Part shown: positions 1-6,734 of the stretch, in pieces | How positions within the stretch are numbered: position 1 is the stretch's first letter | Layout of the letters: each line of letters starts with the position of its first letter | Source of the DNA: Chloropicon primus | Taxonomy: Eukaryota | Reading direction: 5' to 3' | Length of the DNA stretch: 64,000 nt | Assembly (NCBI GenBank): GCA_023205875.1 | Contig: CP060756.1 | Span: 124,001-188,000, forward strand | Notes under the pieces: generated by a model | The model's input: the letters and a program-made list of their open reading frames with translations, nothing else | The model's database searches: none | Told to the model about the DNA's origin: nothing | Program-made: the position numbers and the translations under genes

Positions 1-828
1 GCACTCGTCCGCTGACTGAGCAAACGCGGGTGTCCCCATGTCCGAGACCATCGTCACGCCCATGCTGTTTGCGTAGGCCATTGCTTTCATGATCGAATCC
101 TTCCTTTCCCCCTTTGATGGTTTTGGTTGGAGGCTCCTCACCATCGCGATGGCCGTGTCCGTCAGAATTCCCGTCGGGCTGCCCCCAGCGTCTCTCTCGA
201 TCTTGCCCCCAAGCGGGTCCGGCCTTGAGGTTATGTTGGCCATTGCGAGGAGGTAGAAGTTGACAAGGGCTCTGTGGCCGTCCGCTCGAAGGATCAGCAC
301 CGGGTTGTCGGGCGTTGCTTGGCTAATCCAACCGGCGTTTGGCATCTCTCCCAGCTTTCTCTCGTCAAAACCATAGCCTATGAGCCACGCCCCGGGTTCG
401 AGATTCGCTGCTCGGTCGCGCACCCTCTCGATAAAGTCAGCTCTGCTGGTGGCATCACGAAGGTCCAATTGGGAGAGGAAGCTTCCTCCCATGATGAGGT
501 GGGCGTGCGCATCCACGAGCCCGGGAAACACGTACTTCCCTTCCAGATCCACTGCCTCGATAACGGATCCCTTTAGCCTCTCACGAACACCCGCCTCCTC
601 CCCGACATCTAGAATATCTCCCAGTGCGTTCGAGACAATCGCTCCTTTCCGCACAACTGCCTTCCCCGTGTTCAACGTGAAGTTGAAGAAGAATCTCGCG
701 GGGTGGTCTCTCGCTTCTGGTCCTCCTCCTCCACCTCCGCCCGATCTGTGCGACACAAACACGAGGACGAGGTACGAGACGCAAGCCACCAACCAAGTTG
801 TCCACGTCACCCACTTCGATCCCGCCAT
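1..828 (-). CDS. Amidohydrolase family 3 (YtcJ/LAF3-like), runs off the window start
   Basis: Manual translation (frame absent from ORF track): MAGSKWVTWTTWLVACVSYLVLVFV...VDLEGKYVFPGLVDAHAHLIMGG...RADGHRALVN...GKIERDAGGSPTGILTD; DxHxH metal motif, N-terminal hydrophobic segment. Confidence 0.85.
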   Translation of the reverse strand, partial: MAGSKWVTWTTWLVACVSYLVLVFVSHRSGGGGGGGPEARDHPARFFFNFTLNTGKAVVRKGAIVSNALGDILDVGEEAGVRERLKGSVIEAVDLEGKYVFPGLVDAHAHLIMGGSFLSQLDLRDATSRADFIERVRDRAANLEPGAWLIGYGFDERKLGEMPNAGWISQATPDNPVLILRADGHRALVNFYLLAMANITSRPDPLGGKIERDAGGSPTGILTDTAIAMVRSLQPKPSKGERKDSIMKAMAYANSMGVTMVSDMGTPAFAQSADEC

Positions 829-1003
829 CCTCCTCCACGCACTCTGGAGCAGCACCTTATATCTCGATGACCTCAAACGTGGTCCGTTTCCGCCAAGTTC
901 GGGTTCATTGCAAAGATCGCGAGACGAAGTTTCTCTGATGATCACACCTCCCTCGCCAACGCCCTCCTCTGTCGCGCTCAAACCGCCCCCCGAACTCGCC
1001 CCT

Positions 1004-1034
<31 letters not shown>

Positions 1035-1246
1035 CTCCAGCGCCTCGAAGTGACTCCATGAGTGTACCGAACGAAGGCTCTCTTAACTCTTGTTATGGTG
1101 TTCAGACATCAGATCAAAAACAGCACACAGAAAAGTCACGAAAGGACGGTAAGATAATCACAGTCAATACTGGAAGCACAAAGGCAAGTTCTCCTTTCCA
1201 CTGAAAGAGAGAAACACGGAGAGAACGGAGACCGGCCCCTACTTAC

Positions 1247-1400
1247 CTGTTAGTTTTCTGCAAAGGTCGTTTCACCGAGTTTGTAAGTTTCTCGGCAGGG
1301 TAATTCGGCCCTACCACGACCATTCCACCGTACATGAACGAATACTTCCGCCCACGCACGGCAGCCCGTACTAACAAACGTATGTGCAACCCTGAGGAGT
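1247..1400 (-). ncRNA. Putative Fanzor omegaRNA scaffold
   Basis: Directly downstream of the nuclease stop. 16-bp hairpin at 1327-1362 with six G-U pairs that form only on the minus strand; multibranch stem 1265-1321; long-range pairing 1370-1376 with 1248-1254. Confidence 0.65.
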
Positions 1401-3571
1401 TACACACTTTTTGGTTGACGCAAGTGCTTCAGGAGGACGTTGCGTGCCCCGTTCACATCCCGACCGCACTTGAAGCCACACTTCTGGCACTTGTACACCT
1501 CTGCTCCACCCAGGTTCTTCTTGATGTGTCCGCACCTGCCACAGGTCTTGGAGGTGTACTCCTCCGTCACGATCGCCAGCTCACTGCCGTGCAAGAGCAC
1601 CTTGGAAGCCAAGAACGTTCTGAACGCATAGTGCCTCAACGTCAAGAGCGTGCGAGCCGTCTTCTTCCTGATCACTCGGCGTCTCCCGTTGTTGTTCTTC
1701 TTCACCATGTCTTGGGACTTGAACTCCGGGAGGAGGATTGTGTCGAACCTCCTGCATAGATCGTTGGCTACCTTTTTGTGAAGCTCGTTCGTCAGACCTC
1801 GAAGTTTCTCCATGCAGGCGTATTGCTGTCTCTTCAAGTCGCGGCGGTCGAGGTAAGGGAGCTTCACCTTTGGGTCTTTGCGCTCGGAAATGATCTCATC
1901 AATCCTCCAGCAGAGGTTGAACAGCCTCGCGAAGCCTCGCTCGCCCTTGGCATACTCCCCGACGCCTTCTTGCGGCGAGTACGACGTCTGAAAGGTCCTG
2001 ACTCCCGGATCCAGGGCGACAACCTTCCGCTTGTTCTCAGGCTTCAGGGGTGGCAGGCGATCCCATGGCGTCGCGATGGGAATGTGCATGTGGAACTGCC
2101 CAAGGCGATTTCTTGTGATCTTCACGGCACCCTCGATCTTGCCCCCGGGGATCTCCTCCGTCAAGTACAGGGGCCCGCCGGCCATCTTCTTCTTGAACAC
2201 CTCCAGCTTGGTCCACTTGCGTCGTTTCTTGTGCTTCGTATCATCCTTGTGCCTCGTGTTTGGCCTTTCGATCGTCTCCACGTTCTTTAACTCTCTTGCA
2301 TCAATTTCAATAGTCCAAGAGCTCGGTTGCTGACGTTGACGATACTTGAGAACGAAGCGGTGCCCCTTCTTCTCGCCGCGCTCCTTCATCGCTTCCTGCT
2401 TCGCGGTGTTCGAATCCCATGCCTTGATGAGACTTCGCACGGCAGCTTGTCTGATGGCACAGGGGGTTTCCTTCAGCCAAGGATGCTTCTGATTCACAAA
2501 GGCCCCGCTAACGTAGTCCCGGTCCTTGGCCACTTGGAGGCGAAAAGCTCTGCCTCCAATTTGGCTCTCGAGTCTCTTCTCTCTGGCCGCGAAAAGCTCT
2601 GCCTCCTGTTTCGTCCATGGCCGTGGAGAGCATTGGATTTCTTTCAGCTCTTTCTCCAGGCCCTCAAAGACCTCAGGGCGTCGCGGTTTGGCCGTCACAA
2701 ATCTGTCCAGCAGGACGGTCCAAACCAGCGGAAAATCCTCCTTCTTGACCGCCTCCAAACACTTGTTGTATGTGAAACGCGCAGCTCCCATCCAGTTGCA
2801 AAGGCATTGCGCCTGCTCAGGGTTCAAGCGCATCCTCACCTTCCTCGTCCGTATCACCGTTCGCTCCGACAATAGCTTGGAGGTCTTCAGTTTCTGCTCC
2901 CTCTTCCTTTTGGCGGGCGACTGCAATGTCTCGACGGATACCACAGAATCTTCTGGAAGGTTCAAGCACGACCTCCATCCCGTCTTCGGACACTTTACCT
3001 CTACAAGTTCTCTCTTGATCGATGAGAACCAGGTCTTCTTCACGCTGTCGTCCGCCAAGCCACCCGGCTGCTTCCCTGCTTTCTTCCCCCTCTTGTTCTT
3101 CTTCTTCTTGCCCTTCTTCTTGTTCTTCTTCTTGCCCTTCTTGCGAGGCTTCTTGCGAGGCTTGCCTGACGAGCTCGAACTCTCACCCGCAGAGGCGTCC
3201 GCCTCCGGCCGCTTCCCCTTCCGCTTCCCCCCCCGCTTCTTGCGAGGCGTGCTCGAACCCTCCTCGAAAGCAGAGGCGGGGTCGTCCAGCGGCTTCCCCT
3301 TCCGCTTCCCCCCCCGCTTCTTGCGAGGCGTGCTCGAACCCTCACCCGCAGAGGCGGGGTCGTCCGCGGGAGGAAGCAGGCACAACGCGTAGAGCAACTG
3401 CAAGCCCTGATTCCAGAACGGAAGTAACGGCCGCTCCGTCGTCGGAGACTCCTGCCCCGACTTCGAAGCGCCCTGAGCATGACTCTCGCCAGAGTGCGAC
3501 CTCCTTGTGGAACTCGTCGAGCCACTCCCCTGCTTCTCCTTTTTCTTACGGCGCTTCCCTGATCGCGCCAT
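1400..3571 (-). CDS. Fanzor2 / IS607-type TnpB RNA-guided endonuclease (723 aa)
   Basis: HTH_OrfB-like RTRKVRMRLNPEQ...WMGAARFTYN; RuvC-I VVALDPGVRTF; ILLP plus relocated RuvC-II Glu in VTEEYTSKTC; zinc ribbon CGRCG...CQKCG; RuvC-III RDVNGARNV. Confidence 0.95.
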   Translation of the reverse strand: MARSGKRRKKKEKQGSGSTSSTRRSHSGESHAQGASKSGQESPTTERPLLPFWNQGLQLLYALCLLPPADDPASAGEGSSTPRKKRGGKRKGKPLDDPASAFEEGSSTPRKKRGGKRKGKRPEADASAGESSSSSGKPRKKPRKKGKKKNKKKGKKKKNKRGKKAGKQPGGLADDSVKKTWFSSIKRELVEVKCPKTGWRSCLNLPEDSVVSVETLQSPAKRKREQKLKTSKLLSERTVIRTRKVRMRLNPEQAQCLCNWMGAARFTYNKCLEAVKKEDFPLVWTVLLDRFVTAKPRRPEVFEGLEKELKEIQCSPRPWTKQEAELFAAREKRLESQIGGRAFRLQVAKDRDYVSGAFVNQKHPWLKETPCAIRQAAVRSLIKAWDSNTAKQEAMKERGEKKGHRFVLKYRQRQQPSSWTIEIDARELKNVETIERPNTRHKDDTKHKKRRKWTKLEVFKKKMAGGPLYLTEEIPGGKIEGAVKITRNRLGQFHMHIPIATPWDRLPPLKPENKRKVVALDPGVRTFQTSYSPQEGVGEYAKGERGFARLFNLCWRIDEIISERKDPKVKLPYLDRRDLKRQQYACMEKLRGLTNELHKKVANDLCRRFDTILLPEFKSQDMVKKNNNGRRRVIRKKTARTLLTLRHYAFRTFLASKVLLHGSELAIVTEEYTSKTCGRCGHIKKNLGGAEVYKCQKCGFKCGRDVNGARNVLLKHLRQPKSV
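3171..3370 (-). repeat. ~80-bp intragenic tandem repeat (about 2.5 copies) in the Fanzor N-terminus
   Basis: gcttccccttccgcttccccccccgcttcttgcgaggcgtgctcgaaccctc occurs at ~3211 and ~3292; encodes DDPASA..EGSSTPRKKRGGKRKGK. Confidence 0.9.
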
Positions 3572-3986
3572 GACGGTTATTAGGGTTTCACTCGCTGCCC
3601 TCCTCGTAACTCCTCGTAACTATAGATTTGCCTTGTCCAGCAAGTGAACACGAGAAAAACGCTTAGTGGGTTGTCCTTTGGGTGTGACCAAACTGGTATA
3701 CACTGGAATCCCACCAACAGGGGAAAACCTCCAACAACTCTGTGAACCTTTGACAGGAGGTCTTGGAGACCGTCGACGTCGACCGAGACAAGGAAAGGGA
3801 AGGGAAGTGGATTGTCTGGCGTGGGTTGTCTGGCCTTGGTTTGTGTCGAGTCCCCCCGAGGTGGGCATGCATTATGCCATCGTCGTTGTCGTTGTGACAA
3901 AGGAACGACCTCCTCCTTCCTTTTGACAAGACAGAAGACAGAAGACAACGCACATTGGGGGATTGAGTAGTGTTTTTGCGGACGCA

Positions 3987-6734
3987 ATGGGGAAGGTGCC
4001 TTTGCCTCCCATCTCGAGCTCGAGGGGGAGGGAGAAGAGAAAGGCGACCGCCACGCTTCCTGGGAGTCTGAGTGTTTACGAGCCGAAGCAGTCCAAGAGA
4101 GGGATTGACAGCAAATGCAAGGAGAAGTCCAAGAACAAGGAGAGCGAGGAGAGGCTCAAGCTCCTTCACAGCAGGAACAAGGCTTACATACAGCAGCTCG
4201 AGGAGAAGAGCAGGCAGATGCGGCAGCAGGCCGAGCAGGAGTCCGAGAGGGTGAGCGCCTTCCGGGACCGACTGCGGAAGCGCATCCTGAAGGAAGTCTC
4301 CCAGAGCAGCAAGGACTTCGCCATGATGAAAGCGGAGAGGATGCTCAAGGACAAGGCCGAGATGATGAAGCAGAGGGCCGATTCGAAGTCCAGCATTCAC
4401 AGGAACGACTCGGCCTCGCCCGGAGGGAGCCTGAGGAACAAGTTCGCGGCGTACAGGAGCGCCTCTCCCGGCTACTCGACGATTGGCCACCAGCAGAAGG
4501 TGAAGAGGCCGACGACGTCCTCGGGGACCGAGAGTCGGTCGCGGTCGAGGGTGACAGGCTTCGAGAATCTCAAGCAGCTTCAGCGGCCGCAAACGAGTCA
4601 TCCGAGCAAGCCCAGGTCCGAGCAGGTCCAAAGGCCGAACACGGCGCAGGACGACTCGGGGGAGGTCGCTCAGGGGAGCGGCAGGCAAATGGTTGCCAAG
4701 CTGAGAGCGAATCGCGTCATATCGAGCGCTTACGCGAGCACGCCGGCGACGACGAGCCCAACCGCCACGTCCCCGACCTTTGCGACCACGATAAAGATCT
4801 ACAGGTCCATCCAGTGCAACACGAACCCTTCCCTGAAGAGGTACCTGATGTGGAAGAAGCGGAACAACATCGCGTTCGAGGCAAAGGTGTTCACGATATC
4901 GGGGGAGAAGAACTTCTTCTACATGCGTCGCGCCTTGCTGGACCGGGGTTGGATCGAGAACAAGGACACCAACACGGAGTTCTTCGACCTGAAGTGGTCC
5001 CTGCACAGCGCGGACATCAAGCACATCAACCTGCGCCAAGACCAGTTCGTGAACCACTTTGAGCACGCTTCGAACATCACCACCAAGTGCGGCCTGCTCA
5101 AGACCTTCAAAGAGCACGCCCTCTCGGCCTCCGTGAACGCGTCCAAGTTCTACCCCAGGTCGTACGAGCTGAGCACGGAGGAGGGCAAGTGGGAGTTCGA
5201 CAAGGACTTCGAGATGACAGCGGCCTTGTCCATACTCAAGAGGGCCTGGGTCGATCTTCACACGGGGGAGAAGACTCGCCTGGACCAAACTGCCCTGGTC
5301 GCGATGAAGGCTTGGACGTTACGGCTGCAGCACGAGAGGAACCTGGTGGTAGAGGACTTGGAGGTGGACACGACCTGGCTGCCAAAGATAAGGAACCTGC
5401 AGTGGAACGAGATCCGGTCCTCTGACATCTTTTCCAAGCCCGTGGTGCCCAAGGAAGTTCTTGACGCCGCTGAGAAGAAAGTTCCCGTCAATCGTTGCAG
5501 CTGCCCTGCCCAGGACGAGGGGACCGAGGTGCTCGTGATAGAGGACAGCATGAGCACTGACTCGTCGAGTGCGTCCACGCAAGACGTCTTCCAAGCGCCC
5601 TGTCCAGTGGCCGAGGCCAATTCCTCGGAGGGCGAGGTCAACTCCTCGGAAAGCGAGCTCGACAAGCTTGGGAAGCTCCTGGGTGAAATCTACGAGAAGA
5701 ACCACCAAAGCTGCATGGACGGTATGCACAACATCTGGATCGTGAAGCCCGGGGGCAAGAGCAGGGGACGGGGCATCAGGTGTTTCAACAACCTGCAGGA
5801 GATCTGGAGTTACGTCAGACACGACCTGACCGAAAAGTGGGTGGCCCAAAAGTACATCGAGCGCCCATTGATAGTCCACAGGAGGAAGTTCGACATCCGC
5901 CAGTGGATCCTTGTCACGGACTGGAACCCGCTCACCGTTTGGATGTACGGCGAGTGCTACTTGAGATTCGCCGTCGAGAGCTTTGACTTGCTCAACTTGG
6001 ACGCTTACATCCACCTCTGCAACAACAGCGTGGTGAAGCACAGCGAGAGGTTCGACAGCGCGGCGAGCGAGATCGAGTCGGAGGGGAACATGTGGAGCAT
6101 GGAAAGGTTCGAGAGGTACGTTTCGGAAGAGCTCGGCGCGGGGAACGCGGTCAGGGAGGTCATCCTTCCCCAGATGAGGAAAATCGTGACCGACAGCCTT
6201 CGGAGCGCCCAGTGGGCCGTGAAGGACAGGAAGGAGACTTGCCAAGTTTTCGGGTACGACTTTCTGGTGGACGACTCCCTCAACGTTTGGCTCCTCGAGA
6301 TCAACTCGAGCCCGACGATGGAGGCCAGCAACGCCCTCACGGCTCGCCTCTGCAGGGAGTTCCAGGAGGACACCGTCAAGGTGATCGTGGACTTGCCGGC
6401 AGAGCAGCTGAGGAGGCAGAGGAGCGGCGAGCCGAGGCTCAAGCACGACGAAGCGCCCAAGGAGCTCGTCGGCAACTTCGAGATCCTGGTCTCGGACTCC
6501 GTCGTCGCCAGGCAGCCCAAGTACATCGGGCTCAACCTGGTGGTGGAGGGCAAGAGCCTGGCCAAGAGGTTTGCCCTGGAGAGGAGGAAGAGAAGGAAGA
6601 GCCAGATCTTCCTGGACCGGTCCGACCTCAACCTTCAGGAGAACAAGAAAGACGCTAGCCCCTCCAAGGACTTGTCCAGCAAAAAGATGGTGGACAACAA
6701 GCCCACTAAAGAGCCCCTTCAGACGGCCAACTAG
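3987..6734 (+). CDS. Tubulin-tyrosine ligase-like protein, probably TTLL3/8-type glycylase
   Basis: WIVKPGGKSRGRGI, VAQKYIERPL...KFDIRQW, HLCNNSV, FGYDF...WLLEINSSP; first ATG at 3987. Confidence 0.9.
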   Translation: MGKVPLPPISSSRGREKRKATATLPGSLSVYEPKQSKRGIDSKCKEKSKNKESEERLKLLHSRNKAYIQQLEEKSRQMRQQAEQESERVSAFRDRLRKRILKEVSQSSKDFAMMKAERMLKDKAEMMKQRADSKSSIHRNDSASPGGSLRNKFAAYRSASPGYSTIGHQQKVKRPTTSSGTESRSRSRVTGFENLKQLQRPQTSHPSKPRSEQVQRPNTAQDDSGEVAQGSGRQMVAKLRANRVISSAYASTPATTSPTATSPTFATTIKIYRSIQCNTNPSLKRYLMWKKRNNIAFEAKVFTISGEKNFFYMRRALLDRGWIENKDTNTEFFDLKWSLHSADIKHINLRQDQFVNHFEHASNITTKCGLLKTFKEHALSASVNASKFYPRSYELSTEEGKWEFDKDFEMTAALSILKRAWVDLHTGEKTRLDQTALVAMKAWTLRLQHERNLVVEDLEVDTTWLPKIRNLQWNEIRSSDIFSKPVVPKEVLDAAEKKVPVNRCSCPAQDEGTEVLVIEDSMSTDSSSASTQDVFQAPCPVAEANSSEGEVNSSESELDKLGKLLGEIYEKNHQSCMDGMHNIWIVKPGGKSRGRGIRCFNNLQEIWSYVRHDLTEKWVAQKYIERPLIVHRRKFDIRQWILVTDWNPLTVWMYGECYLRFAVESFDLLNLDAYIHLCNNSVVKHSERFDSAASEIESEGNMWSMERFERYVSEELGAGNAVREVILPQMRKIVTDSLRSAQWAVKDRKETCQVFGYDFLVDDSLNVWLLEINSSPTMEASNALTARLCREFQEDTVKVIVDLPAEQLRRQRSGEPRLKHDEAPKELVGNFEILVSDSVVARQPKYIGLNLVVEGKSLAKRFALERRKRRKSQIFLDRSDLNLQENKKDASPSKDLSSKKMVDNKPTKEPLQTAN

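Follow-up and report, generated by a model that had tools for sequence, protein, structure and literature searches.

The Fanzor2* nuclease gene described here, in a 64,000-nt stretch of DNA from the alga Chloropicon primus (the window), lies in a cut-and-paste transposon whose predicted omegaRNA scaffold ends at 1247, exactly at a splice donor and 156 nt inside the element's right end. We propose that the spliceosome joins this scaffold to the host flank, and that the joined RNA would be a working guide against the empty allele; reasoning from sequence comparisons, we put the probability of this reading at roughly 0.6. The full case, in which the acceptor AG derives from the TSD, the TAM ends in AG, homing is active in the diploid alga, and deletion-bearing empty alleles resist cutting, would fall a little short of even odds. 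The protein family is known. The scaffold that ends at a splice donor, with a guide proposed to be joined to it by splicing, is new.

The window locus is one of about 25 C. primus Fanzor2* copies, already published by Yoon et al. 2023. Their text describes C. primus Fanzor2* as a non-autonomous element for which no autonomous partner was found, its terminal repeats being degenerate and its 5-nt TSD variable (PMC10711439), and Lemieux et al. 2019 report 25 C. primus 'IS605 transposase' genes with RNA-seq depth (PMC6731263). The present copy likewise is non-autonomous and multicopy, with degenerate repeats and the variable 5-nt TSD. Its protein cluster has 46 members, and the 14 others listed are all named Chloropicon primus proteins; over the core, identity to the cluster representatives is 97-99% for three of four. 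Because these two papers describe the family, the headline of the preliminary description, an intact Fanzor2 nuclease locus, was already in print. Nor is the locus of a new type. Near-identical C. primus proteins stand in the curated Fanzor table of Yoon et al. (PMC10711439), in support of the Fanzor2 identity; the passages of that text examined concern the same family as the window copy and give no activity data for it. What of the splicing? The words 'splice' and 'intron' are absent from the main and supplement text of Yoon et al. (PMC10711439), the search having covered text and not figures (Fig. 2, S3). In the parts of Saito 2023 and Jiang 2023 that were searched, Chloropicon is not named and 'splic' occurs once in each; introns in Fanzor genes are a topic of Jiang 2023. 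No report of a spliced Fanzor guide turned up in the literature searched, a scope that leaves aside figures, preprint supplements and subscription papers.

The element and its setting are as follows.

1091..3736, minus strand: cut-and-paste element, non-autonomous, with Fanzor2* as its only cargo (from TGTT...AACA ends, TSD and empty-site joint)
3737..3741, plus strand: left TSD, 5 bp, ACTCT, reading AGAGT on the element strand (TSD and terminal-repeat search)
1086..1090, plus strand: right TSD, 5 bp, ACTCT (same search)
1..1059, minus strand: host amidohydrolase-3 gene, downstream of the element (Pfam)
3963..6734, plus strand: host tubulin-tyrosine-ligase-like gene (TTLL), on the other side of the element (Pfam)

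The two ACTCT copies, with TGTT...AACA, form the top-scoring pair of TSD and terminal repeats in the search. Contigs from runs X1 and X2 branch at 3736, and they also contain a joint that bypasses the whole element, an empty site. At 2646 bp the element reaches on both sides beyond 1247-3571, the extent first given for the locus; that extent leaves out both ends (1091 and 3736) as well as the 156 nt that separate the scaffold from the right end. Three heterozygous insertions in print, measuring 2664-2707 bp, begin with the same ends (PMC6731263). The termini share TGTT and match at 7 of 11 letters, with TGTTG at the left and TGTTA at the right; a long degenerate terminal repeat is marginal (alignment z 1.8-1.9 global, about 1 local). 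A domain scan of window ORFs finds eukaryotic genes around the element (formin, TTLL, meckelin and others), and these neighbours and the empty-site joint support a eukaryotic genomic context. A perfect 10-nt tandem repeat at 3601-3620, about 30 nt ahead of the Fanzor start codon and also in the published chr17 copy, is a possible promoter element.

Is this an IS607 element? Fanzor2 identity holds, as detailed below, and the IS607 element does not. IS607 elements are defined by GG ends without TSD or terminal repeats (PMC13565253), and the present element has a 5-bp TSD and TGT...ACA. A six-frame search of the element gave no TnpA or relic, with matches only at E of at least 3; a relic hidden in another frame of the Fanzor N-terminus is rejected by the same search. 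Among related loci, 64 of 101 have a TnpA ORF; TnpA or a relic occurs in five of the six closest loci with upstream sequence, the two closest, L001 and L002 (55-56% identity), carrying relics. In both of these the Fanzor2 N-terminal extension overlaps the decayed IS607 tnpA, in another frame. TGT termini with a 4-5 bp TSD are shared with the Ginger2/Tdd transposons (PMC2836005, PMC10045372), and from these ends and the 5-bp TSD a Ginger2/Tdd-like integrase may be the mobiliser. Ginger2 has terminal repeats of 50-180 bp and a TGTNR pattern (PMC2836005); such long repeats were not found in the C. primus element. None of the 21 long ORFs scanned in the 64-kb window is a gypsy-like DDE transposase, and the window holds no second copy of the element or of the Fanzor protein. 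Metagenome and viral contigs gave no match in single-protein scans, and the right-end 20-mer is absent from the viral and prokaryotic contigs searched. The donor 17-mer occurs in 34 viral loci; none encodes a Fanzor, and we set them aside as chance.

The protein carries the following features.

1400..3571, minus strand: Fanzor2* ORF, 723 aa, uninterrupted (ORF call, Pfam, PDB match, fold model)
3047..3367, minus strand: K/R-rich low-complexity insertion in the N-terminal domain, residues 69-175, with 81-nt repeats (sequence)
2009..2011, minus strand: RuvC-I D521, in the ALDPG / DPG motif (motif and alignment)
1727..1729, minus strand: P615 (ILLPE), at the canonical RuvC-II position (motif and alignment)
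1562..1564, minus strand: relocated RuvC-II E670, aligning with the Glu ahead of the ApmFz2 zinc finger (alignment)
1478..1543, minus strand: zinc finger CxxC...CxxC, with CGRC and CQKC knuckles (Pfam and motif)
1457..1459, minus strand: RuvC-III D705 (motif and alignment)

Motifs, alignment, PDB sequence match and fold model together support the identification of the ORF as a Fanzor2. Across 109 aligned sequences (alignment numbering is offset by 171 from ORF residues), no variation occurs at D521, P522, G523, P615, E670 or D705, or at three of the four zinc cysteines. The uninterrupted ORF, the zinc ribbon, the proline at the canonical RuvC-II position and both aspartates of the preliminary description are all borne out, and its catalytic Glu, placed within 1559-1564, narrows to E670 at 1562-1564, because E671 varies among the aligned relatives. 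A Glu about six residues ahead of the zinc finger is among the Fanzor2 fingerprints of Yoon et al., and E670 lies there. The profile searches and structure prediction proposed at that stage agree: Pfam HTH_OrfB_IS605 and the TnpB zinc ribbon match, NCBIfam TnpB models match below their cut-offs, the top PDB sequence match is 9B0L, the mimivirus Fanzor2 ApmFz2 (E 4e-19), and the fold model (pLDDT 88) has 9B0L as its Foldseek top match (E 6e-20, TM 0.67 by target). The codons are GC3-rich and host-like, as had been noted: at 0.74, GC3 falls toward the low end of the 0.69-0.92 spanned by neighbouring long genes. The K/R-rich insertion, whose length differs from copy to copy, likely provides nuclear localisation signals. 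The IS607 Fanzor2 ApmFz2 (9B0L, PMC11832414) and NlovFz2 and MmeFz2 (PMC10432273) have, as described, the same DPG, relocated Glu, zinc finger, fold and 3' structured RNA; unlike them, the C. primus element has no TnpA and has a long basic insertion in the N-terminal domain. Two metagenome proteins, P0031 (947 aa) and P0058 (921 aa), place XPG/Exo1-type nuclease domains ahead of a Fanzor2-like C-terminal half.

A more basic difference lies at the 3' side of the gene. In ApmFz2, NlovFz2 and MmeFz2 the guide starts at the end of the DNA element, whereas here 156 nt separate the scaffold from the end, and a guide directly at the element's end, as in OMEGA systems, would arise only after the likely splice. 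The features concerned are these.

1247..1414, minus strand: predicted omegaRNA scaffold (folding z -4.6/-4.7; layout common to L001, L002, L004 and L005)
1089..1246, minus strand: likely spliceosomal intron of 158 nt, comprising donor GTAAGT at 1246, the entire right subterminal region, and an acceptor AG outside the element (inferred here; shown at another family copy)
1090-1089, minus strand: predicted 3' splice site AG, the first two letters of the right TSD on the element strand (the same position is the acceptor at another copy)
1108..1112, minus strand: the intron's sole branch-point-like motif (CTRAY), 20 nt ahead of the acceptor (motif search)
1069..1088, minus strand: host flank predicted to act as guide once spliced, and as target in the empty allele (the guide at the window site would read 1088-1069)

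The adjacent structured RNA of the preliminary description is upheld, as 1247-1410 outfolds all 200 shuffles (z -4.6). The scaffold consists of a hairpin over the stop codon and a closing stem that pairs 1370-1376 with 1248-1254, and ends in CAG at 1247. The same layout, in which a hairpin spans the stop, the closing stem shows compensatory pairs and two letters come last, recurs in four of the seven closest loci, L001, L002, L004 and L005, whose scaffolds fold with z of -4.9, -3.2, -2.9 and -1.5; stem arms in this five-sequence comparison were picked by eye, and L003, L006 and L007 were omitted for want of a stem recognisable by eye or of 3' sequence. The final letters of L001 and L002 are GG, as is usual for IS607, the ends being set by the layout and not by an empty site. 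By eye no convincing pseudoknot partner for the scaffold's 3' end appears across the five sequences, and an Rfam search gave three matches, all at chance level. L003 (51% identity, without a TnpA relic) is organised otherwise: a 78-nt inverted repeat just after the ORF matches two upstream copies (749-826, 1335-1412 and 3316-3393), with a 247-nt direct repeat around the post-ORF repeat, so that L003 is either another captured Fanzor2 or a rearrangement.

Might the omegaRNA instead lie at the true right end, 1091-1250, with the guide running straight on from the flank? Tested Fanzors are built in this way, according to PMC13565253. The sequence past the scaffold is unstructured in all five loci compared; here 1091-1260 does not outfold its shuffles (z -0.5) and shows no resemblance to L001-L101, and 1247-1414 both outfolds shuffles and resembles related loci. 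We regard the ordinary layout as highly improbable. Nor would the 20 nt at 1227-1246 be the natural guide, because the sequence after the scaffold is likely an intron; as 156 unstructured letters follow the scaffold, an unspliced guide that simply read on would be nearly fixed and would lie inside the element.

The intron is, in our judgement, very probably real. At 1247/1246 the sequence reads CAG|GTAAGT, a perfect splice donor on the last letter of the scaffold, and CAGGTAAGT occurs once in 128 kb (the 64-kb window, both strands), exactly there. At 1244-1247, contigs of X3, X5, X6 and X7 (studies P1-P4) pass from the element into foreign sequence, five different ones in all, one of them common to X6 and X7. 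The partner in X5, with 46 foreign letters against 375 from the element, equals, letter for letter, the X4 flank past the element end plus AG, so that the skipped piece is 1246-1089 in window numbering, GT...AG, 158 nt; this removal is seen at one other copy of the family, in runs for which 'RNA' is a guessed label (X3-X7, with X3 marked 'DNA?'). The mean predicted intron in C. primus is 152 bp (PMC6731263). All three genomic right ends visible in full (the window and two published rows, PMC6731263) have both the donor and the subterminal region. No AG occurs in the element's last 79 nt, 1091-1169, so that the first acceptor must be supplied by the host. That stretch also holds a single CTRAY, a combination found in 3.9% of shuffles and 1.2% of window stretches; CTRAY is a branch-point consensus that may not be this alga's, and CTRAY-like motifs follow many GTRAGT sites of the window as well.

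Other observations are less tidy. Of the five junction partners one matches a flank, and of three unspliced flanks in RNA-like runs one has its spliced form listed; the other partners may reflect splicing to farther host acceptors, giving useless guides. The joint 1088-1247 was not seen for the window copy in the runs examined, and neither were two joints that had been expected, one for an intron of 46 nt using the strong-looking acceptor at 1201 and one for the acceptor at 1170. Past 1247 the summed contig depth drops about 4- to 18-fold in X4, X6 and X7, is zero in X5 and stays level in X1 and X2, and the RNA-like runs leave 979-1071 uncovered; depth and holes prove little. The right flanks read AGAGT (window), AGGAT, AGAGA, TGGAT and ACAGA (noisy, published), so that AG starts three of five (p 0.0035, in a small sample partly selected by RNA).

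Could the junctions at 1247 be DNA, that is, deleted or ancestral copies ending at the old IS607 boundary? They are known as contigs with a guessed RNA label, X3 being marked 'DNA?', and 107 loose-end rows lie outside the listing, so that DNA copies ending at 1247 may be among them. The skipped piece has exact GT...AG ends and takes in two letters of the flank, however, and the same flank is joined both ways, unspliced in X4 and spliced in X5. Further, among the loose ends listed for X1 and X2 none falls at 1244-1247, and coverage by the contigs of these two runs is alike over 1108-1234 and the scaffold. DNA junctions thus seem very unlikely. A second alternative accepts the intron and makes it an incidental 3' UTR intron, serving mRNA maturation or read-through, with the nuclease unguided, guided by the fixed unspliced 20 nt, or a mere passenger. 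The four unmatched junction partners fit this view, as do the two flanks without a leading AG and the letters following GTAAGT, which differ among copies. Against it, the donor coincides exactly with the letter that closes the scaffold in related IS607 loci, a family of many copies has retained catalytic residues and scaffold, the fixed 20-mer matches at most 15 of 20 letters elsewhere in the window, and the apparent deletion considered below falls in the target of the spliced guide. We therefore hold an incidental intron to be unlikely and favour the spliced guide.

Family copies vary near the donor. At 1238 and 1240, X1-X3 contigs and the flank-matching published insertion differ from the window, and another published copy has the window letters; gene conversion between copies is possible. 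A diverged subfamily, about 7-10% different over 1360-1547, appears in X1, X3, X4, X7 and X8, where its loose ends fall at 1360 or 1412, and it may have another or a shorter 3' end. Among gene models, known as protein models alone, P0005, P0146 and P0135 fuse Fanzor to foreign exons. P0135 joins Fanzor to a SET-domain protein that stands alone as P0136 in another assembly, the insertion lying at the 5' part of the host gene; at this site the splice could yield chimeric transcripts too.

What TAM would a spliced guide demand? The predicted target also exists at the filled junction, so that the TAM must discriminate filled from empty. The letters ahead of it are ACAAG at the filled junction and CACAG in the intact empty site, and a 3-nt TAM such as CAG would, we infer, separate the empty site (CAG) from the filled junction (AAG). 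As the guide starts after AG, the TAM is predicted to end in AG; tested Fanzor2 TAMs, given as GGG, CCG and TAG, are 3 nt and end in G (PMC11832414, PMC10432273). In the noisy chr6 row, however, filled and empty sites would look alike to a 3-nt TAM.

The empty-site joint, 1068 to 3736, skips 2667 letters, that is, the element, the TSD and 16 nt more. Its shorter side counts 24 letters and adjoins a masked repeat, and the joint carries the flag 'between: not known'. The extra 16 nt, 1069-1084, are positions +5 to +20 of the predicted target and are seemingly missing or replaced in the empty allele. Fanzor2 cut positions, as reported, fall within +5 to +20 (PMC10432273). The published long-read insertion whose flank matches the window site starts with 25 noisy letters matching 1070-1090, not 5; the chr6 insertion starts with 26 flank letters, and chr17, seen from its left end, with only 3 (PMC6731263; hand-counted from the first 400 letters of each, with noisy long-read breakpoints). 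The gap would fit cut-resistant empty alleles left by cleavage. Alternatively the guide model holds and the gap stems from imprecise excision by the transposase or from breakpoint error, with no sign of cutting. Cut-and-paste excision can leave deletions in flanks, and this origin gains thereby, as it does from the flag on the joint and the noise of long-read consensus. On the other side, the break in short-read contigs coincides with that in the long-read call, the TSD and the left flank are both preserved, and the excess occurs at both visible right ends and not at the single visible left end. Excision or breakpoint error is somewhat unlikely in our view. Heterozygous insertions do persist, which we count against homing by a spliced guide.

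How might such a system have arisen and how would it work? In the spliced-guide scenario, an IS607 Fanzor2 lost its TnpA and became wrapped in new transposon ends, and the old IS607 right end (stem plus CGG in relatives) would have turned into a splice donor (stem plus CAG|GT). A single transcript would encode the protein and, toward its 3' end, carry the scaffold. The new right end, 156 nt long, would be removed as an intron, with the first AG past the element as acceptor, often the first two letters of the TSD; with the acceptor AG so derived, splicing would set both the start of the guide and a TAM ending in AG. Host flank would thus be placed behind the scaffold as guide, its target being the uninserted copy of the site. 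Cutting of the empty homologue or of the excision site would then result either in the element being copied or in a small deletion making the site resistant. Cleavage of the empty allele in favour of element copying has been proposed for OMEGA systems (PMC13565253). In IStrons (IS605/IS607 with a group I intron; 10.1101/2023.11.20.567912) splicing likewise takes place at the right end and omegaRNA. As that work describes it, the ribozyme excises the whole element and severs scaffold from guide, whereas here the splicing is likely spliceosomal, takes out the end only and would join the two.

A Fanzor guide must come from the flank, yet cut-and-paste transposons keep their protein-binding ends there, and variable TSDs, unlike fixed ones, cannot be folded into the scaffold. 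If true, a spliced guide resolves this conflict without change to the scaffold, and offers a concrete route from IS607 Fanzor2 to the Fanzors in eukaryotic transposons. Some Fanzors scored as having no guide RNA, or a wrong one, would then have introns after their scaffolds. The TAM would be testable, and in the scarred empty alleles one would have a rare trace of a Fanzor cutting in its own host.
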